DNA from: Escherichia coli
GTDB lineage: Bacteria; Pseudomonadota; Gammaproteobacteria; Enterobacterales; Enterobacteriaceae
Assembly: GCF_013315695.1 (NCBI RefSeq)
Contig: NZ_CP054355.1
DNA: 64,000 bases
Direction: 5' to 3' (one strand)
Positions 1,221-54,100 of this stretch are shown in pieces. Each line of letters starts with the position of its first letter. Position 1 is the first letter of the stretch. A program made the position numbers and the translations under genes. Under the pieces are notes generated by a model, which searched no databases, was not told where the DNA came from, and saw only the letters and a program-made list of their open reading frames with translations.

Positions 1221-1961
1221 TCACTTCAGGGGAGGCAGTGTACGCAGGATCTCTGCAGCATCGCGCCCGTCACCTGTGAAAGGCACTGCCAGCGTGGCAG
1301 CCATATCCAGCGCAAAAACTCTGGTATAAACCTCCATCGAACGTGGATCCCTGTGACCAGCCAGTGCCTGGATGACTTTCCGGGGCTGGCGGTGATAGAG
1401 CATGTGCATGATATAGCTGTGCCGGAAGGTATGTGGTGTGACCGGAATCGAAAAATGCACGCCGTCAGCTTCAGCCCGCTTCACCGCCTGTTTCAGCCAG
1501 TTGCGCATTGTCTCATCCGTGACCGGCCATAACGGCTCCCGCCGGCGGGGCCGGGTGGTGATCATCCAGCTTTCCATCTGCCTGACATAGCTTATATCTG
1601 TCAGCGGAACCAGGCGCACTTCATCTTTTGGCGGGCGTCCGCGTCGCGCACGCACTTTTTCGGACAGGATCCGCACAAACGGTCTTACTCCATCCAGGTC
1701 AAATGATTCCGGCGTCAGCATCCGGGCTTCGCCAATACGCATTCCGGTATTCCAGAGGGTGGCGAACAGCATATGGTGACGCTGATCCGGCATATAGAAA
1801 AGAAGGGCACTCACTTCCGGGGCCAGCAGGTAGGCCGGTGTGGCCCCCGTGGAAGTGGCCATTCTTCTCAGGGAGAGCGCTGTTGCAAAATCCACCCCCG
1901 GCGCAATGGGTAACAGGGAGACGCGTTCTGGTGAATTCTGCAGGGGAATGACATTGTTCAT
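1221..1961 (-). CDS. int: Tyrosine site-specific recombinase (phage integrase family) associated with RepFIB
   Basis: 246-aa ORF with C-terminal R...HxxR...Y catalytic-type motifs (HTFRHSY, GHRD...Y); position next to RepFIB as in F-like plasmids. Confidence 0.75.
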
Positions 1962-2341
1962 GAGTTATTTTTCACGTAGCACACGCACTGTTTATGGATA
2001 CAGGTATTCTGACCTGAACGCCCGGATCCTTCCACGACAATAAATCGCAGCGCGCGGATCCTTTTGTTTGATTATCACGCATTATTGCGGGTAAAACCAA
2101 ATGCGTAAAGGCGCATTTTGCCGCAGGGATCCCGTCTTAAGCCAGTCATGGTGCGGGCTGAGAGCTGGTTTACCGTTTTTGGGAGAATTGGGGTAATGCC
2201 AGGAACAGGCAGATACGGAGAAAAATCCTGCAGATAACCTTCTACGACAACTGAAGGTGTCTGACGCCATATTCTTAGCTACTTCTCAGTTTTAAGGCGG
2301 CTTAGTCACAACATAAGGTTATGCATAATAAGCATATTTTA

Positions 2342-2361
2342 TTATGTTATGTTATGTTATG
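2342..2361. repeat. Pentanucleotide tandem repeat (TTATG)x4
   Basis: Read directly: ttatgttatgttatgttatg in an AT-rich intergenic region. Confidence 0.6.
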
Positions 2362-2577
2362 GTCTTGTTCATGCATGAACTGTTATCTATTCAGTCACTT
2401 TTAACGTTTTATATCATACTGCATATGACACAATCATCTTCTATATTCAGATTAAAAATATTATGACGACGATCAAATAAATTTAGTGAAATCATTACTT
2501 ACAATAATATGTTTATGACATAATTTATCAAAAATATCCGACAACCTTCCTGAAAGGTTACTGCGAGGAGTCAAACA

Positions 2578-2640
2578 ATGAAGTGTAATAACTTATTCAC
2601 TCTTTTTTATGCTCTCTTTATAGCAAAACCAGGAAGTTAA
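2578..2640 (+). CDS. Putative 20-codon small ORF (MKCNNLFTLFYALFIAKPGS) preceded by GAGGAG Shine-Dalgarno
   Basis: Manual reading: GAGGAG about 8 nt upstream of ATG; stop TAA abuts the ATG of the following membrane-protein ORF; below ORF-track size cutoff. Confidence 0.25.
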   Translation: MKCNNLFTLFYALFIAKPGS

Positions 2641-2641
2641 A

Positions 2642-3811
2642 ATGAATCAGAAGTGGAAGACGCTAATAGTTTCAGTATTAACACCATCAAGTATTATATC
2701 AGGGATTGCGTTGATAGTTCTCTGGGGATATTTCAGTCGTCTGGATCGACTTGATATTTTCTTTGATGTGATGAATATTAAAAGCATCTTGGTATTGGTT
2801 TGTTGTACAACTATTCTATCATTGATTATGATCATTTTTATTTTTTTTATAACATCTTTTTTTATACCAATAGTTATTCCTTATGATATAAAAAATCTTC
2901 CTGCTTACAATAAGATTCAGGGTAATTTTTTATCTGTAATGATGTTATCTGGCCTCTTCCCCATGGCCTTTATATACGTGTTATACTGTGCATTTGATTT
3001 TGACCAGAGTGTTAAAGATAACTCTGGCTGGTTATCTATTTTAAGTATAGGAGTACTAATAGTTGTTATTTCAGCCATAATAAACACGAGGTATCTTGAA
3101 TATGACTTATCGTTTAAAAATAATAGAATGAAACTGTTGAGACGTGTTCAGATCTATCTTGTCATTCCGTTGTCTATTGCTTTACTGGTGCATCTTCAGG
3201 TAATTCCACTGGAGATGGTTTTTAGGAATATTGAAACTTCAGATAAGAGTATTAATTTCAAAGTGATAGCTGAACTGGCTTTCATGTCATATTTTATTTT
3301 TATTCTGACAATACTTCCCGGCCTCATTTATCTAAAAATGAATCCACAGCATAAACTTTCTAAAAGAATTAGTTCTGCATTTGTCGCATCCTTGATGATA
3401 TTATTAGTTATATCGACTCAAATAACCGTATTACCAGTAATTTTTACCCATTCAGTTATTAAGCTCTCAGGTATAAGTGACTTCAAAATACATAGCTACA
3501 TTATTAAAACAAGTGAATATCCGGAGGAGTTTTTTTCCAATGCAGTATGGGGTAAAAAAAATATAAAACCGGGGGAATATTACTCTGTGCAGGCTGTTTC
3601 TATGTTTACGACAAACCAGTTTATTCTCCTTTGTCCCAAGGATATTATAAGGTTTTATCGGGAAAGCTGGAAGTTCGACCTGCTTAATGTAGACTTCGAT
3701 ACAAATACCAGGAAGAAACTCCAGGAAGAAGCAGCATATTGCGTACCAATTTCTGCAATATCTGTAAAACGATGGGATATGCCTCTTCAGGGCTCGAAAC
3801 CCTCAAATTAG
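2642..3811 (+). CDS. Hypothetical polytopic inner-membrane protein (about 8 predicted TM helices plus about 120-aa C-terminal soluble domain)
   Basis: ORF track 389 aa; long hydrophobic stretches; AT-rich codon usage; no family recognised. Confidence 0.5.
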   Translation: MNQKWKTLIVSVLTPSSIISGIALIVLWGYFSRLDRLDIFFDVMNIKSILVLVCCTTILSLIMIIFIFFITSFFIPIVIPYDIKNLPAYNKIQGNFLSVMMLSGLFPMAFIYVLYCAFDFDQSVKDNSGWLSILSIGVLIVVISAIINTRYLEYDLSFKNNRMKLLRRVQIYLVIPLSIALLVHLQVIPLEMVFRNIETSDKSINFKVIAELAFMSYFIFILTILPGLIYLKMNPQHKLSKRISSAFVASLMILLVISTQITVLPVIFTHSVIKLSGISDFKIHSYIIKTSEYPEEFFSNAVWGKKNIKPGEYYSVQAVSMFTTNQFILLCPKDIIRFYRESWKFDLLNVDFDTNTRKKLQEEAAYCVPISAISVKRWDMPLQGSKPSN

Positions 3812-3889
3812 AAGGCCGCTCGTGCGACTGTATTAGATAGTAATGCGGTATGGAAAAATAGTGATGGCAAGATGAACTTGACTTGGCTA

Positions 3890-4141
<252 letters not shown>

Positions 4142-4657
4142 TTATTTCCGAACCTCGCCCTTGCCTGCGTAACCATCCGTCGCCCCCATCCTGTTTTCAG
4201 ACTGCGGAAAAAGGCAAGTTTTTATCCCCCCACAGAGATTCAATCATATATCGCGTGTTTTGGAAGTGACAGTTCTTATTCCTGAGAATACTGCATGTGC
4301 AACACACTCGGCATCCATCGATACCACTTTTATCTCCAATAGGCAGGATAAAAAACAAGACTGTGAATTAAAGTAATCGGCAAATGAATGAGTTAGAAGA
4401 TACTGAAAATGAATCAAGGACTAACCCCGTAGGGAATGAAAATAATAAAAGAACATCTTGTTTTTATTTTAATGAATGAGCATGTTCTTTTATATTAATA
4501 ACAAAACCTATCATTAAACAAAATGATGAATGACAGAGTTTTCTTTAAAATAGCTTATATTATCTTACAGTAGCTGACATAGTGCAATATAAATTATCAG
4601 CTATGCCATAACGGCTTAGCAGTGTCTAAGCGTAAGAATCAAGACTTCAGTTACAGT

Positions 4658-4873
4658 TTACTCACGGTAGAAATATTTAAGAGCACTAACAATACTGTGT
4701 GTATAGTTTAGTTTTTTTAGGCATAGGCAAAAATAACTAATGGAAACATTGTTCCTTTCACAACTTTCTTGCTTTGAATAACCATCAACCAAATACTCCT
4801 TAAGAGCCATGATGTTTTTTTTACTTCTGATTGGTGATATTTCAATTAAAAGTGAAAAGTGTTCTCCATTCAT
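4658..4873 (-). CDS. PapB/FaeB/PefB-family fimbrial operon regulator (orphan)
   Basis: ORF 4658..4930; segment EHFSLLIEISPIRSKKNIMALKEYLVDGYSKQESCERNNVSISYF parallels PapB (HFFLLIGISSIHSDRVILAMKDYLVGGHSRKEVCEKYQMNNGYF); likely start at internal Met. Confidence 0.55.
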   Translation of the reverse strand: MNGEHFSLLIEISPIRSKKNIMALKEYLVDGYSKQESCERNNVSISYFCLCLKKLNYTHSIVSALKYFYRE

Positions 4874-5454
4874 ACATGATTGAATTAGCTCTGTATTAAA
4901 GTTATTTCTTGGATAGGGGGAGGGAGTCATATATTATCTAACCTTATTTTTCTATTAAAGAATTGAAATAGAATAGACAGAAATGCTATTGGAGTAAGTA
5001 TTTGATAGTAGGTAATTTACGCTCCTATATAGACTATTGTTACTCATATAATATTTTGGGGTGGCTTATGTTGTGACAGCGCCAGTTGTTAAAAACGTTG
5101 TACCGTCATACGGGATAATATAGAACAACCAATAACGATTACTGGTCTATGACCACCGCCAGAGATACAGAAAAGCTTTATCTGTAATGAGCTCAACTAT
5201 ATATCCCGTCAACTGCTGGTTCAGAGCGTTGTCGTAAAAATCCTGTGCAAATAAATTAGTCATATATCAAGCCATTTACGCGGTAACTGGCAGGTCTGAA
5301 ATTTAACCTCCTGACGATGCAGGCTTGCATACATCCATAGTTTTACTTTGGTATGTGACTCTAAGTATGTAGATCATCAGTCCGGCATGGAACGCTGTTT
5401 TGACCCGCTAAAATCCTTACGGAAAAGTAAGGATGTGGATTTGCCCCTATATTT

Positions 5455-6172: not shown

Positions 6173-8143
6173 ATGTATATGAACGTAATCAGAAACGTCA
6201 TTTGTACATTAATCATACTCCCGATAGGGTTACAGGCAGAGACCAGTCATTCTTCTATGGCTAAAGATACAATCACCGTTGTCGCGACAGGAAATCAGAA
6301 CACGGTATTTGAAACGCCGTCAATGGTCAGTGTCGTCACGAATGACACGCCATGGAGTCAGAATGCGGTCACATCAGCCGGCATGCTGAAAGGTGTTGCC
6401 GGTCTCAGCCAGACTGGTGCAGGACGGACCAATGGGCAGACCTTTAATCTACGCGGCTATGACAAAAGCGGGGTACTTGTTCTTGTTGACGGCATCCGTC
6501 AACTCAGTGACATGGCAAAAAGCAGTGGCACTTATCTGGATCCGGCACTCGTCAAACGTATCGAAGTTGTCCGCGGACCAAACTCCAGTCTGTACGGCAG
6601 TGGCGGGCTGGGAGGTGTTGTGGACTTCAGAACTGCCGATGCAGCAGATTTCCTTCCCCCCGGAGAGACAAACGGTTTAAGTCTGTGGGGAAATATCGCC
6701 AGTGGTGACCACAGCACAGGCTCGGGGCTCACCTGGTTCGGTAAAACCGGAAAAACAGATGCGCTCCTTTCTGTCATTATGCGTAAAAGAGGTAATATCT
6801 ATCAAAGTGATGGTGAGCGCGCACCTAACAAGGAAAAACCTGCAGCCCTGTTTGCGAAAGGCTCTGTCGGTATAACAGACAGTAACAAAGCAGGTGCCAG
6901 CTTGCGTCTCTACCGGAATAACACCACTGAACCGGGCAATCCCACTCAGACACATGGTGACAGCGGCCTGCGTGACAGAAAAACAGTACAAAATGACGTA
7001 CAGTTCTGGTACCAGTACGCTCCTGTGGATAACAGCCTCATCAATGTAAAGTCAACTTTATATCTCAGTGATATCACTATCAAGACAAACGGTCACAACA
7101 AAACGGCAGAATGGAGAAACAACAGAACCTCCGGTGTTAATGTTGTCAACAGGAGTCATACTCTGATTTTTCCGGGAGCCCATCAGTTAAGTTATGGCGC
7201 TGAATATTACCGTCAGCAGCAGAAGCCAGAAGGCTCTGCCACACTATATCCGGAAGGAAACATTGACTTTACATCGTTGTATTTCCAGGATGAAATGACA
7301 ATGAAAAGCTACCCGGTTAACATTATCGTCGGTTCCCGCTATGACCGGTACAAGAGCTTCAATCCCCGTGCCGGAGAACTGAAAGCCGAACGCCTGTCCC
7401 CAAGGGCGGCGATTTCAGTCTCACCGACAGACTGGCTGATGATGTACGGCTCCATATCCTCTGCATTCCGTGCCCCCACAATGGCAGAAATGTACAGGGA
7501 TGATGTACATTTTTACCGCAAGGGTAAACCCAATTACTGGGTACCTAACCTTAATCTGAAACCAGAAAATAACATTACCCGTGAGATTGGCGCAGGTATT
7601 CAACTGGACGGCCTGCTTACAGGCAATGATCGGCTGCAGTTGAAAGGCGGATATTTCGGAACGGATGCCAGAAACTATATTGCCACGCGCGTGGATATGA
7701 AACGGATGCGTTCTTATTCTTATAATGTATCCCGGGCCCGTATCTGGGGATGGGATATGCAGGGAAATTACCAGTCTGATTATTTTGACTGGATGCTTTC
7801 TTATAACCGCACGGAAAGTATGGATGCCAGCAGCAGGGAATGGCTGGGCTCCGGCAATCCTGACACACTCATCAGTGACATCAGTATACCTGTTGGTCAT
7901 GGAGGAGTTTCTGCCGGATGGCGTGCTGAACTTTCGGCAGCAGCCACGCATGTGAAAAAAGGCGATCCCCATCAGGCTGGCTATGCCGTACATTCCTTTT
8001 CACTGTCTTATAAGCCTGTAAGTGTTAAAGGCTTTGAGGCATCAGTGACTCTGGATAATGCCTTCAACAAGCTTGCCATGAATGGCAAAGGAGTGCCGCT
8101 TTCAGGCAGAACTGTCAGTCTTTATACCCGTTATCAGTGGTAA
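6173..8143 (+). CDS. TonB-dependent outer-membrane heme/hemoglobin receptor (ChuA/ShuA family)
   Basis: 656 aa; N-terminal TonB-box-like DTITVVA; blocks YGAEYYRQQQKPEG, SAFRAPTMAEMY, YWVPNLNLKPE and C-terminal YQW closely parallel ChuA. Confidence 0.8.
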   Translation: MYMNVIRNVICTLIILPIGLQAETSHSSMAKDTITVVATGNQNTVFETPSMVSVVTNDTPWSQNAVTSAGMLKGVAGLSQTGAGRTNGQTFNLRGYDKSGVLVLVDGIRQLSDMAKSSGTYLDPALVKRIEVVRGPNSSLYGSGGLGGVVDFRTADAADFLPPGETNGLSLWGNIASGDHSTGSGLTWFGKTGKTDALLSVIMRKRGNIYQSDGERAPNKEKPAALFAKGSVGITDSNKAGASLRLYRNNTTEPGNPTQTHGDSGLRDRKTVQNDVQFWYQYAPVDNSLINVKSTLYLSDITIKTNGHNKTAEWRNNRTSGVNVVNRSHTLIFPGAHQLSYGAEYYRQQQKPEGSATLYPEGNIDFTSLYFQDEMTMKSYPVNIIVGSRYDRYKSFNPRAGELKAERLSPRAAISVSPTDWLMMYGSISSAFRAPTMAEMYRDDVHFYRKGKPNYWVPNLNLKPENNITREIGAGIQLDGLLTGNDRLQLKGGYFGTDARNYIATRVDMKRMRSYSYNVSRARIWGWDMQGNYQSDYFDWMLSYNRTESMDASSREWLGSGNPDTLISDISIPVGHGGVSAGWRAELSAAATHVKKGDPHQAGYAVHSFSLSYKPVSVKGFEASVTLDNAFNKLAMNGKGVPLSGRTVSLYTRYQW

Positions 8144-8149
8144 CAAATC

Positions 8150-8941
8150 ATGATGAAAAATACAGGTTATATCTTAGCTCTTTGTCTGACAGCATCGGGG
8201 CATGTCCTGGCCCACGATGTCTGGATTACAGGTAAACAGGCAGAGAACAACATTACCGCAGAGATTGGTTATGGTCATAATTTCCCCTCAAAGGGCACAA
8301 TTCCTGACAGAAGGAATTTCTTTGAAAATCCCCGGATTTATAACGGGAAAGAGACAATAACACTGAAGCCAGCGTCCACGGATTATGTCTATAAAACTGA
8401 GTCTGCAAGCAAAGATAATGGCTACGTTTTGTCAACATATATGAAACCGGGATACTGGTCGAGAACCTCTTCAGGATGGAAACCGGTCAGCCGGGAGGGC
8501 AGAAATGATGTGGCTTACTGTGAGTTTGTCACTAAATATGCGAAATCTTTTATTCCTGGTGAACAGCAGATGCCAGCACAACTCTATCAGTCTCCAACGG
8601 GGCATGAGCTTGAAATCATTCCGTTATCCGATATAAGTCGTTTCAGTGAAGATGTGAAGCTGAAAGTCCTGTATAAAACGTCCCCGCTCGCCGGAGCTAT
8701 CATGGAGCTTGACTCGGTCAGTTATCTGAAATCATCCCGTCATACTCATGCAGTTGAGCACAAACATCCTGTTCATAAAGCAGAACTCACCTTTGTAACT
8801 AATGAGGATGGTATCGTCACAGTACCTTCTCTTCATATTGGACAGTGGCTGGCGAAAGTCCAAAATAAGAAAAGTTTTCAGGACAAAAGCCTGTGTGATG
8901 AAACTGTCGATGTGGCAACTTTAAGTTTCTCCCGAAATTAA
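8150..8941 (+). CDS. Secreted/periplasmic protein, possibly DUF4198-like partner of TonB-dependent receptor
   Basis: 263 aa with signal peptide and mature start AHDVWI; 6 bp downstream of receptor gene; family assignment from memory only. Confidence 0.4.
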   Translation: MMKNTGYILALCLTASGHVLAHDVWITGKQAENNITAEIGYGHNFPSKGTIPDRRNFFENPRIYNGKETITLKPASTDYVYKTESASKDNGYVLSTYMKPGYWSRTSSGWKPVSREGRNDVAYCEFVTKYAKSFIPGEQQMPAQLYQSPTGHELEIIPLSDISRFSEDVKLKVLYKTSPLAGAIMELDSVSYLKSSRHTHAVEHKHPVHKAELTFVTNEDGIVTVPSLHIGQWLAKVQNKKSFQDKSLCDETVDVATLSFSRN

Positions 8942-12550: not shown

Positions 12551-12898
12551 TTACAACATAGTCAGGGACGTAAGCAGTCTTTTAGGCTGCCGCCAGTCGA
12601 TACCTTCCAGCAGCATCGCCAGCTGTGCCGGTGTGAGGAACACTTTGCCATCCCGGGCTGACGGCCAGGCGAAGCGGCCGCGCTCCAGCCGTTTGGTCAG
12701 CAGACACAGTCCATCGCCGGTAGACCAGAGGAGCTTTACCTGACTGCCATTACGCCCACGGAAGATAAAAACGTGACCTGACATCGGATCGTCTTTCAGC
12801 GTCGTCTGCACCTTTGCCGCCAGGCCGTTGAAGCCGTTTCTCATATCGGTGATGCCAGCGACCAGCCAGATCTTTGTCCCTGATGGTAATGGGATCAA
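12551..12898 (-). CDS. IS66-family OrfB (TnpB accessory protein)
   Basis: 115 aa MIPLPSGTKIWLVAGITDMRNGFNGLAAKVQ...; typical IS66 orfB. Confidence 0.8.
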   Translation of the reverse strand: MIPLPSGTKIWLVAGITDMRNGFNGLAAKVQTTLKDDPMSGHVFIFRGRNGSQVKLLWSTGDGLCLLTKRLERGRFAWPSARDGKVFLTPAQLAMLLEGIDWRQPKRLLTSLTML

Positions 12899-13299
12899 CG
12901 TTTGAGCTCCCGTATCAGCAGGTTCAGGATATTTTCGCTGATGGCACCATTCAGACGGAGTGATCCGTGCCGGAACGTCACTTCACAGCTGATATTGAGT
13001 GATTCAGGTGTCGCAGCAGCTACAGGTTGTGACCGGGGGGAGGTTGTAGGGACAACATCTTCGGCATCAAGTGTTATCGGGAGCAGCTCAGGCACGTTGT
13101 TTTCTGTTGTTGAAGGAGGACGTAGTTTTCCTTCGCGCCAGTACTGGCGCCACTTGAACAGCAAATTATCGTTGATCCCATGCTCACGAGCGAGTTGCGC
13201 TACGGAGATCTCTGGTCGATGCGAGAGTTCAACCATTTTGATTTTGAACTCAACGGGATAATTAGGGCTTTTTTTACGCACTGCGGTTAATGATTTCAT
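12895..13299 (-). CDS. IS66-family OrfA (accessory protein)
   Basis: 134 aa; overlaps orfB by 4 nt as in IS66 elements. Confidence 0.8.
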   Translation of the reverse strand: MKSLTAVRKKSPNYPVEFKIKMVELSHRPEISVAQLAREHGINDNLLFKWRQYWREGKLRPPSTTENNVPELLPITLDAEDVVPTTSPRSQPVAAATPESLNISCEVTFRHGSLRLNGAISENILNLLIRELKR

Positions 13300-13378
13300 G
13301 GATAGCGTCCACCATATTTGGTGTCCACTATTCTCTCAGGAATTTCAGGATCTGCCAGACGGTGCTGAGACGACGCTT

Positions 13379-46094: not shown

Positions 46095-46231
46095 ACCATC
46101 CTGCACTTATGTTGCACAGAAGGAGTGAGCACAGAAAGAAGTCTTGAACTTTTCCGGGCATATAACTATACTCCCCGCATAGAGCAACAGCTTCTATGCA
46201 GTTTCTTGTTAGCCCCGGTAATCTTTCCTAC

Positions 46232-46330
46232 TCGCCAAAGTTGAAGAAGATTATCGGGGTTTTCGCTTTTCTGGCTCCTGTAAATCCACATCAGAACCAG
46301 TTCCCTGCCACCTTACGGCGTGGCCAGCCA
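46232..46330 (+). ncRNA. copA: CopA antisense RNA region of the IncFII replicon (approximate)
   Basis: Leader sequence gttgaagaagattatcggggttttcgcttttctggctcctgtaaatccacatcagaaccagttccctgccaccttacggcgtggccagccac recognised as the CopA/CopT target region; boundaries and strand inferred. Confidence 0.4.
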
Positions 46331-48238: not shown

Positions 48239-48826
48239 GTTATTCTCCATATCAGATAAATGGCACCTGTATTTCAGGCATCCTGAACATTGCAGCACAC
48301 AATGAATAACACCTTGTTTTGTGAAATAAATCACAAAATATAAAATCTCGACTTAATACGGAAAAAACTCTGTGCTACTCAGAACTGTACGGTCATACTG
48401 CCCGACCGGATATTAAAAAAAGCAAATCTCATGCATTATTCAGCCTTCTGAATCCCTGGAGTAATGAAGGCTGCTTTTTTCGTTACACCCTTCCCCGGCT
48501 GCGCCGGTGGCAGTGTTCAGCCCTTTTTCGGGCAAACTGCTGCCAGTCTGTCCGGGGCGCAACACCGGCAGCCCGTCGCCATGCTTCTGCCGCTTCCATC
48601 CAGCGTCCACTGACCTCCAGAATAACGGCCCGGCTTCCGGCACGCTGCCAGCGCCAGACCTGACCGTTCCGTGAACTGTTTCTGAATCCATTCATCTTTA
48701 TCACTCCTCTTTAACCCGTCAGTATTATGGTGTTAAATAATCTACTGAATTGGCTTCCTTTCGGGTACGGAAGTTATTTCCTTTTAAGCCTTATTTCCCT
48801 GCCTCCTCTCTGATGGAGGCTTTTTT

Positions 48827-51174: not shown

Positions 51175-54100
51175 TCAGTCTCCGCCCAGGGTTTTCTCTT
51201 TCTGCAGGTCACGAACCATATCCCGCTCCATCTGCTGCAGACGCTCCTGCAGCAGATTTTCCCGGGCAACCTCCCGGACCGCTTCCCGCTCCCGTTGTGA
51301 TTCACGCAGCACACTCTCCGGCAGTGCGGTTTCCCGTTCAGATATGGCAGACCGGTCACGCTCCTGTCCGGCAATATCCCTGACAGCCAGCTCTGTTTTG
51401 CCATCCGGCAGGTCAGGTTTGTTCTCTGCCATTTTCCTGACAATTTCATCTGCGCGGCGTTCCGTTTCACGGCGGATGGCCTCTTCAGCCTGCCGCTGTG
51501 CCAGTACCTCTGCCGTGACCGGTTCGCCATTTCCGGCCCCCGGCTGGACGCTGTTATCCGGGATATCCCCCCACACGCGGCCACCGGTGATGGCACCGGG
51601 ATTCCACGGACGACCTTCACCGGCAATTCTCACCACCACACCGCTGTCAGGATTATCACGGGCAATCCGGACGCCATCCTGCATATTATCAGCCAGCAGG
51701 CTCTCTCCGTTACGGCTGCCCTGCAGGGCCACGAACTGCGCATCCCCGCTGCCTTTCACCCGTCCTTCACCACTGAATCCCCGCAGCCCGTTTCCGTCAT
51801 CCGTGGTCAGTGGGTTCAGCCAGATACCAGCTGACTTGCCGTTACGGTCAAACGCCGGCAGTGCCACATACGGCTGCGGATATTTACGTCCCGGTGCAAT
51901 AAACCGTGCAGGGCTGTCTCCCCCGGCCAGCCCTGCCTGACGGAGAACGGCACGGCCTGCCGCCACGTCCCGCAGTTCCCGTGCCGTACTGAACAGCCGC
52001 TGCGCATTCATGACCTCCCGGTCCGGTTTCGGCTCCAGCACATCGTGGGCAGTTCCTTTCTGTACGGCATTGTTAATGGCATCCGTCCAGCCCTGACGGT
52101 TATCGGTGTACACCTGCACATGCTGCTTCATACGCGACAGGGCCACGTAGGCTGACTCAAAGCCGGCCATCAGTTTCCGGTTACCTTCCGTGCCTTCAAG
52201 CGCGATGGCAAAGGTTTCACTCGCCCCCTGCGCACCGTGGGCGGTGATGGCATAAGCCAGGTCAATATGTTGCTCTGCCCGCTCCTGGCCGGGGCGAATC
52301 ACCCGGGTCTGCTGTCCGTCTGACAGCGTGACACTGTCACCGGAAACCGCTGTCACCGTCCAGACGCTGTTGGCCACATAACCGCGCTCCCGGTCACTCT
52401 TCGTGAAGCGCATCCGGTCGCCGGTCCCCACCCGGATTTTGTCCGGGGTGTACAGTGTGACACCTTCAGCCACCGCCTCCCGGGGCGAAATCAGCCGCGT
52501 GTTACCTTCCGCATCCTCCAGGGTTATCAGCCCGTCATCCTTGCTGATACCGGCAATCCGGTGATACACACTATCCACCAGGGCAAGGGCATCCGGGTTA
52601 TTCTCCCAGGTGGAGAGACGACGCAGCTCCCCGTCACGTATATTCGCTGTGTTCAGGACAGGCACCATGACCTGCTCTTTCCCCAGCTCACCGGCCTTTT
52701 CCCGTGCATCATGAATCATGCTGTTCAGTACGCGCCGGTCCTCATTCAGGTGCGTGACAATCAGCGTCTGCTCCCGTGCTTCCGGTGTCCTGCCGGTATA
52801 GTCGCGGACAATGGCTTCATACAGTGTCATGGGGACATCCGGAAAAGTCTCACCTTTCAGCATCGCCTTCTGCTGCGCTTCTGCCAGTTTCGCTTCCTGG
52901 CTGTGACTGAACTCCGTCACGGAGTGCTCCGGTGCCCATGCGCCCTCCTGACGGGGAACCTGAGACGGTTTCACACTCTCAAGCCCGGACAGTGCCCTTT
53001 CCACATCCCGGTTAATCAGGCTGTATACCGCCTCCCGCAGTTCCGGCGTCTGACGCACAATCTCCTTCATGATGACCACATCGGCAGCACTGCGCGTCTG
53101 CTGGAGACGGAAAGGCTGACCGGGCGCGATGGCCTGCAGCTGGTCCGTGTCACCACTGGCCACGGCACGACCGCCACCGGCCGCAATCAGGGCGTATGCC
53201 CGTGCCATGTCGGTATTGCCCACCATTGAGCTCTCATCGAGCAGGAACAGCGTGTTGCTGAAATCCGGCGTTTCTCCGCTGCGCTGCTGCAGCTGCGTGT
53301 CATGCAGAAAGGACGCCAGCGTCTGTGCATCCACGCCGGCGCTGCGCATCTCACCGACCGCACGGTGCGTGGGCCCCAGCCCCACAACTCGGGGACGCTC
53401 ACTCGCCGGCAGCATGTTCACGGCTGACATCACCGCCCGGAACTGTGTGGTCTTACCCACACCGGCATAACCCTGTACCACCGTGAAACGGTCGGACGTT
53501 TCCAGTATCATACGGGTGGCGGCACGCTGTCCCGACGTTAACGTCTCCATGAGTTCGCCGGGTACTCTCTCCATCAGCGGCGTGACCGCCTCCTTACCTT
53601 CGAGAATATGGCGAAGAATACTTTTTTCTGCCTCATACGACGCACGGGAAACCAGCAGGCCTGTGCCATAGCCTTTTGCCACATCCACATACAGTAAGTC
53701 ACCGCGTTTTATCTGCGCATTGATTTCCCCTCCCAGTTCAGTAAAACCGGTTCCTTCTGCAGCAAACGACTTCGCCTCTGTCAGCAGGTCCACCATGCTG
53801 AAGGCCAGGTTTTTACTTTCCAGCACAGGAAGGGCCAGATGAATGGCCTGCTGTGCCGGCGTGTGCAGCCCGGTTTTCTGCAGACTGATAGCGGTTTCCA
53901 GCGATGTCTCACCGGCCCGCGCCTTTATCTGCTCAGAAACCACCGTAAAGGAGGGATGGCGGGCAAGTTTTTCCGCAGTACGGGTTTCATCCAGTGAGGA
54001 ATACAGCCGGACATCACGACCGCTGCGGGCCAGACCGTTCAGGGTGGCGTTGTCCATTGCCATCTGTGTGACGGAGGCAAACACCGTCGCACTGTCACTG

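Follow-up and report, generated by a model that had tools for sequence, protein, structure and literature searches.

The DNA analysed here (the window) is a 64,000-nucleotide stretch of Escherichia coli contig NZ_CP054355.1 that opens with the RepFIB initiator gene repB (1-978) of an F-type E. coli plasmid. Beyond repB it carries a 20-codon open reading frame (ORF) that nearly touches a gene for a 389-amino-acid (389-aa) membrane protein. An earlier note on this DNA had proposed that the small ORF is a leader-peptide control element or encodes a small partner peptide. We consider it rather probable, instead, that the small ORF is incidental in the leader and that the 389-aa gene is a self-contained single-gene mobile cassette. 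The 20-codon ORF would then be a chance frame in an AT-rich 5' leader/promoter region, neither leader peptide nor partner peptide, and the islet at 2250-3811 would have been acquired horizontally as a cassette of one gene that brings its own ribosome-binding site (AGGAAG), its AT-rich leader (28% GC) probably being silenced by H-NS. The product would be an inner-membrane protein with seven transmembrane (TM) helices, whose disulfide-stabilised beta-barrel/helix domain of about 120 residues faces the periplasm. It would belong to a gammaproteobacterial family that moves as solitary AT-rich cargo of plasmids, conjugative elements, satellite-like islands and prophage moron slots.

Direct reading of the sequence found the GAGGAG hexamer, the 20-codon ORF, the near-touching stop and start codons and the 389-aa ORF where the earlier note had placed them. 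The features that matter most are as follows.

2250-3650, no strand assigned: AT-rich islet, with a GC content of about 0.29-0.34 in the composition profile, comprising the leader and most of the membrane-protein gene.
2565-2570, plus strand: GAGGAG, a hexamer resembling a Shine-Dalgarno (SD) site, 7 nt before the ATG of the small ORF; read directly.
2578-2640, plus strand: 20-codon ORF with the product MKCNNLFTLFYALFIAKPGS; read directly, judged incidental and not conserved.
2631-2636, plus strand: AGGAAG, the large gene's own SD site, 5 nt before the ATG at 2642.
2642-3811, plus strand: 389-aa membrane-protein gene (RefSeq WP_001072359.1, annotated as "hypothetical protein").
2642-3442, plus strand: membrane domain (residues 1-267), with seven TM helices predicted from hydropathy, loop charges and AlphaFold2 helices.
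3443-3808, plus strand: C-terminal domain (residues 268-389), a small beta-barrel plus helices, predicted to be periplasmic.

The islet stands out in the composition profile, with a GC content of 0.29-0.33 across 2250-3600 versus 0.50-0.59 for repB and for the tyrosine recombinase gene int that follows it (1221-1961, minus strand). The GC content of the membrane-protein gene itself is 0.34, versus 0.49 for the remainder of the first 12 kb, which bears out the view that the islet is AT-rich and of foreign origin. Comparison with plasmid records showed the stretch to be identical in many complete plasmids.

The 389-aa gene is real and under purifying selection: the ratio of nonsynonymous to synonymous divergence (dN/dS) between the window gene and a 90%-identical allele is 0.29. 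Family searches covering 5.8 billion and 1.84 billion proteins gave 89 clusters when grouped at 90% identity, and 113 representatives when clustered at 50%. The largest cluster, of 1893 member sequences, is the intact one, and nearly all full-length members are 370-425 aa long and share a single architecture. Members with a named source come from Enterobacterales, and matches at the structure level include Pseudomonas; across both groups, the architecture and the invariant residues are conserved down to about 20% identity. Four residues (P226, G277, C331, and C367) are invariant across 50 diverse homologs. An alignment of 18 sequences led to six genome loci when used in a profile search, and yielded an AlphaFold2 model with a mean confidence score (pLDDT) of 74.6. 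The seven predicted hydrophobic helices are separated by loops whose K/R-rich members alternate as the positive-inside rule expects. Together, the model and the loop charges suggest a protein with seven TM helices and a cytoplasmic N-terminus, the region from about residue 268 to residue 389 being predicted to lie in the periplasm, where C331 and C367 would probably form a disulfide bond. A 26%-identical homolog was also observed on a 9-kb contig (JAIJJM010000061.1) binned as a metagenome-assembled genome of Collinsella (Actinomycetota); this contig is probably mis-binned, because all other named source organisms are gammaproteobacteria.

The description of the large ORF in the earlier note, a polytopic membrane protein of an undescribed family, was upheld by every collection searched. 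No family in NCBIfam, PADLOC or PHROGs matched the 389-aa protein at E <= 1, and the protein's sole line in Pfam was DUF6338 at E = 1. Similarly, none of the 50 diverse family members matched Pfam at E <= 0.001, the PDB gave no informative sequence match to the 389-aa protein, and literature searches on the protein accessions found no publication. Judged by these searches, the protein is outside every described family.

Genomic contexts support the cargo status of the gene: in 13 of 13 loci it stands alone, with a GC content 5-21 points lower than that of the surrounding DNA. The window type, beside RepFIB and int on IncFIB plasmids, is one of several settings. On plasmid-like contigs of Enterobacter and Lelliottia, the gene is divergent from a different Xer-like recombinase. 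On an E. marmotae IncFII plasmid, it lies beside SMODS and SLATT genes, of the type found in cyclic-oligonucleotide-based antiphage signalling systems (CBASS), and beside a ParE toxin gene. In integrative and conjugative elements (ICEs) of Xenorhabdus, it comes directly after TraG_N and precedes a reverse transcriptase gene; a type I restriction subunit is encoded close by. Further copies are found after the primase of a P4-like integrase-AlpA-primase island, on a plasmid with ParA, RES and H-NS genes, and in ICE cargo (locus L027) next to a gene with a Colicin_M (ColM) domain; the latter gene is divergent and has its own adjacent gene with a YebF domain (Cmi-type). One homolog lies near a Tlde1-domain fragment. 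Finally, a P2-like prophage carries a 27%-identical homolog (P0100) on the opposite strand, flanked by the genes for the tail sheath (FI) and for tail-fibre assembly (G), which is exactly the Z/fun position of P2.

Tyrosine recombinase genes neighbour the membrane-protein gene, in divergent orientation, in two separate lineages (window 1221-1961; L014, 2303-3280; L002, 4762-5760; L015, 6764-7906; all on the minus strand). This repeated adjacency could be a coincidence of plasmid backbones or reflect a recurrent insertion site. A conserved module made of int and the membrane-protein gene was rejected, as the IncFIB and Enterobacter/Lelliottia recombinases, both generic Xer-like enzymes, share no more than 22-24% identity over their catalytic region. 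An integron cassette was rejected as well, since the neighbouring recombinases score 36-77 bits versus integron-integrase cut-offs of 265 and 435. A fimS-like promoter switch inverted by the recombinase was likewise discarded: the inverted repeats are only short, imperfect and AT-rich, and no orientation polymorphism was seen.

The cassette is very common. Among 5426 complete E. coli genomes, 1259 have a 1.8-kb stretch containing it (covered over at least 80% in 1194), almost always on plasmids, and the 389-aa protein is found in about 22% of complete E. coli genomes. Of 1319 plasmid records, 1174 have at least 80% of the query aligned in a single location, and each row listed at that coverage is one piece, with no sign of an inverted orientation. 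With a query limited to the leader and the 5' end of the gene, only 44 Klebsiella records match. The 1005 Klebsiella records that match a wider query were not counted as carriers of the gene, as those beyond the 44 presumably match the 3' end of that query, where the remnant of an IS3 insertion sequence (IS) lies.

The locus is a solitary accessory membrane-protein gene on mobile elements, and it resembles morons in lifestyle only. Because members of the family are repeatedly placed in the exclusion or defence slots of unrelated mobile elements, we tentatively guess that the protein protects its host at the envelope (superinfection or entry exclusion, anti-phage or anti-toxin activity) through its periplasmic domain, by analogy with these slots. 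Still a little more tentatively, the family might constitute an undescribed set of single-gene envelope exclusion or defence determinants, shuttled as morons and maybe switched by homopolymer slippage.

The closest parallel by position is P2 Fun(Z). The fun(Z) gene occupies the P2 Z region between G and FI on the opposite strand (PMC3091744), and its product blocks T5 and other phages by a mechanism that is not established (PMC8594841). The prophage homolog P0100 is likewise solitary and AT-rich, sits in the same slot and is opposite in strand to the late genes. In contrast, Fun(Z) is 528 aa long versus 389, and the window copy is borne by a plasmid and not by a prophage. Accessory and defence hotspots have been described within the P2 late genes and between the P4 primase and the att site (preprint, 10.64898/2026.02.27.708500). 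The P2-like prophage with the Z-slot homolog (locus L022) also contains, at 12894-14634, an AAA_15/AAA_21 ATPase gene and a 187-aa gene between V (baseplate) and S (tail completion), a PARIS/Gabija-like pair in a second moron slot.

A second parallel concerns exclusion proteins, such as TraS of F, Eex of SXT/R391, Imm of T4, SieA of P22 and gp15 of HK97. These are also solitary inner-membrane proteins of plasmids, ICEs and prophages. Exclusion genes sit after traG in F-like and SXT elements, and one homolog of the 389-aa gene follows an ICE traG. Known exclusion proteins differ in being much smaller and in lacking a periplasmic domain of 120 residues; the likeness is in lifestyle only. In addition, F-type plasmids already carry traS/traT.

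Several results weigh against the envelope-protection guess. The protein is homologous to none of the families in PADLOC, PHROGs or Pfam and has no fold match among solved structures, and several of its contexts are chromosomal and not obviously defence-related. No relative was detected in deposited phage genomes (50,697 INPHARED records searched with tblastn) or in a pattern scan of IMG/VR. Homology to P2 Fun(Z) itself (AAD03288.1) was tried and rejected, with an hhalign probability of 0.1% and E = 0.62.

Alternatively, the 389-aa protein could be an orphan immunity protein against a toxin acting in the periplasm (a colicin-M-like toxin or a type VI secretion cell-wall effector), instead of a phage or entry exclusion factor. 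Its periplasmic domain on a polytopic anchor would suit such a role, as would the homologs located beside the ColM-domain gene and near the Tlde1-domain fragment; moreover, IncFIB plasmids are often colicin plasmids. ColM immunity proteins (PmiA, BmiA and Cmi) would on this reading share with our protein the principle of inner-membrane protection against a toxin acting in the periplasm. PmiA, a protein of about 137 aa with four TM helices, carries a D[T/S]xGxP motif, and its gene follows the toxin gene in the same orientation; BmiA contains three TM helices, while Cmi has a YebF domain (PMC5277000). The comparison stops there: a PmiA-type immunity protein was rejected for the 389-aa protein with its seven TM helices, as proteins of about 137 aa with 3-4 TM helices are unrelated to it (PMC5277000). 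In addition, the ColM-domain gene at L027 already has its adjacent Cmi-type gene, the annotation shows no ColM gene in the 6 kb downstream of the 389-aa gene, and no toxin gene accompanies the homologs in the other contexts examined. We thus regard an immunity function as unlikely.

Truncated products of the gene form large database clusters, which homopolymer slippage may explain. The 389-aa gene contains four A/T runs of at least 7 nt, versus 0.77 expected from its composition (p ~0.008). These tracts are as follows.

2841-2848, plus strand: T8 tract; frameshift alleles (clusters P0029 and P0067) map here or to the T7 tract at 2857-2863.
3530-3536, plus strand: T7 tract, included in a simulation of +/-1 slippage compared with clusters P0035, P0032 and P0033.
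3554-3561, plus strand: A8 tract, included in the same simulation and compared with the same clusters.

Abundant truncated clusters comprise products of 304, 307, 254 and 282 aa, as +/-1 slippage in these runs would yield, and the two clusters altered at the N-terminus appear to map to the T8/T7 tracts. Simulated +/-1 slippage in the T7 (3530-3536) and A8 (3554-3561) tracts gives the common 304-aa and 307-aa products exactly, while IS1 insertion also accounts for some truncated products. These truncations may represent real inactivation, phase variation or homopolymer sequencing errors. Counting against a cassette with a function of its own, frequent frameshift alleles suggest that the gene is dispensable in many lineages.

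Pushed further, the same data could mean that the gene is functionless hitchhiking DNA decaying on IncFIB plasmids, as the large clusters of truncated products fit slippage or IS1 insertion. We find this improbable. A dN/dS of 0.29 between alleles does not fit such decay, nor does the retention of architecture and invariant residues to about 20% identity; moreover, the intact cluster is the largest one, and some of the frameshifts may be sequencing errors.

We now turn to the small ORF. Its TAA (2638-2640) is separated by one base from the ATG (2642) of the 389-aa ORF, and the AGGAAG site of the large gene falls within its 3' end. RefSeq annotates the 389-aa ORF and leaves the small one unannotated. 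Natural variation of the upstream region provides a test of the leader- or partner-peptide idea. The 1319 PLSDB plasmid records fall into two main upstream allele classes, 798 being at least 95% identical to the window and 510 being 80-90% identical. Only alleles of at least 96% DNA identity keep the small ORF whole, a 96% variant showing one Thr-to-Ser change. In the second class, which is about 87% identical and represents about 39% of plasmids (e.g. L011 and L031), a 1-nt deletion shifts translation into an unrelated 14-codon frame (product MKCYNSFSFFMFSL), which stops 18 nt before the ATG of the large gene, and the SD site is weakened from GAGGAG to GAAGAG. The large gene of this class is intact and encodes a protein 90% identical to that of the window, with the dN/dS of 0.29 given above. 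Leader divergence between the alleles is about 13%, with indels, close to the synonymous divergence of the large gene (dS 0.16), which indicates neutral drift.

Two side observations concern this region. Plasmids of the 87% class carry about 770 nt absent from the window (L031/L032, 3211-4001, versus window 2270-2280), between a small ORF beside int and the leader of the membrane-protein gene; locus tags are skipped in the gene table over this segment, so that pseudogenes may be present. Just 5' of GAGGAG lies a perfect 6-bp inverted repeat (AACCTT-N5-AAGGTT, window 2543-2559), which is probably not functional, as the 87% allele has the degraded form AATCTT/AAGGTT.

More distant homologs tell the same story. 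We looked for an abutting ORF upstream of homologs at 69% (Enterobacter hormaechei), 60% (Lelliottia and E. chuandaensis), 53% (E. marmotae), 34% (Xenorhabdus), 32%, and 29-22% protein identity, and found none conserved; their upstream sequences cannot be aligned with the leader of the window. What most homologs keep is a purine-rich site before the start codon (AGGAGA, GAGGGAA, AAGGAAA, AAGGAGGG). With a conserved SD site of its own, the large gene needs no coupling to an upstream frame. The neighbourhood comparison that the earlier note had recommended thus turned against its own proposal: homologs lack the upstream small ORF, the very outcome that the note had named as refuting.

The leader RNA gave no sign of a control element either. 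Its minimum free energy (-19.7 kcal/mol) does not differ significantly from that of shuffled sequences (-21.5 +/- 3.3; z = +0.55), a scan found no terminator-like site between 2578 and 2642, an Rfam search of positions 2000-4300 returned no match, and the small ORF contains no diagnostic codon run. The frequency of such ORFs is also unremarkable. ATG-led ORFs of 20-40 codons with GGAG or GAGG located 5-13 nt upstream of the ATG number 12 in the window versus 23 +/- 5 in dinucleotide-preserving shuffles, and 27% of islet-only shuffles hold at least one SD-led ORF of that size. The small ORF is no more than expected by chance, and its statistical weight is small.

Leader peptides and upstream ORFs (uORFs) of known systems, whether trpL-type attenuators, ermCL/catA86-type leaders or coupled uORFs, resemble the small ORF in being short, SD-led and nearly in contact with a larger gene on the same strand. 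The window ORF departs from them in its unconserved frame, length and sequence between the main alleles, in the lack of alternative hairpins, of a terminator and of a diagnostic codon run, and in being followed by a gene with its own SD site. A leader-peptide control element, being frameshifted in the 87% class, absent at 69-22% identity and devoid of terminator or structure, thus finds no support.

A weaker version of this idea is that the small ORF is a lineage-specific translated uORF, regulatory without being conserved, and that its stop, a single base short of the large gene's ATG, couples or tunes synthesis of the membrane protein in the alleles with at least 96% identity. The points in its favour also tell against an incidental ORF: the frame has an ATG and a strong SD site at a good spacing (7 nt), its ribosomes would affect initiation as they run through the downstream SD site, and the 87% allele still has an ATG-led ORF, though a shorter one. 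In addition, a promoter scan gave no informative transcription start. We nevertheless judge a translated uORF, on the sequence comparisons, quite improbable, because frame, length, peptide, stop position and SD site all differ between the two main alleles, because no such ORF exists in any of the more distant homologs, and because the downstream gene has its own SD site and ORFs of this kind arise at chance frequency.

Finally, a small hydrophobic partner subunit of the KdpF/AcrZ type, suggested by a somewhat apolar product encoded on the same strand next to the large gene, is very improbable: the peptide called hydrophobic in the earlier note is only moderately so (mean Kyte-Doolittle hydropathy 0.64), its longest apolar run (LFTLFYALFIA) has about 11 residues, too few for a membrane helix, no membrane-spanning segment (about 18 residues or more) was found among its 20 residues, and its sequence is not co-conserved with the large gene, being frameshifted in about 39% of plasmids with an intact, selected large gene and lacking an equivalent at every homologous locus examined.

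Elsewhere in the window, one feature adjoins the islet.

4037-4212, minus strand: IS3-family transposase remnant, from the RefSeq annotation of an identical plasmid, just past the right edge of the islet.

An orphan PapB-like gene (adhesin biosynthesis transcription regulatory family; 4658-4930, minus strand; GC about 0.31) lies between IS remnants and has no adjoining fimbrial operon. It is followed at some distance by a gene for a TonB-dependent haem/haemoglobin receptor (6173-8941, plus strand) and then by a DUF4198 gene, with transposase fragments on the flanks; this pair looks like the iron-uptake cargo module typical of pUTI89/pRS218-type plasmids. Rfam matches elsewhere in the window (14054-14170 and, on the plus strand, 25087-25203, 46179-46268, 48402-48586, 53520-53596 and 62933-63018, the first being on the minus strand) correspond to two ALIL pseudoknots, which are frameshift elements of IS3-family transposases, to the CopA antisense RNA of the IncFII replicon, and to the antisense RNAs AS-pc02, AS-traI and AS-traG.

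As the proposed leader or partner peptide fails, this locus reveals no new regulatory element. The gene downstream is of more consequence: it ranks with the most common unannotated cargo genes on IncFIB plasmids, has neither a Pfam family nor a structural relative, and its relatives occupy positions that mobile elements use for exclusion and defence genes. A large share of clinical E. coli plasmids carry the gene for the 389-aa protein, and assigning it a function would be worthwhile.

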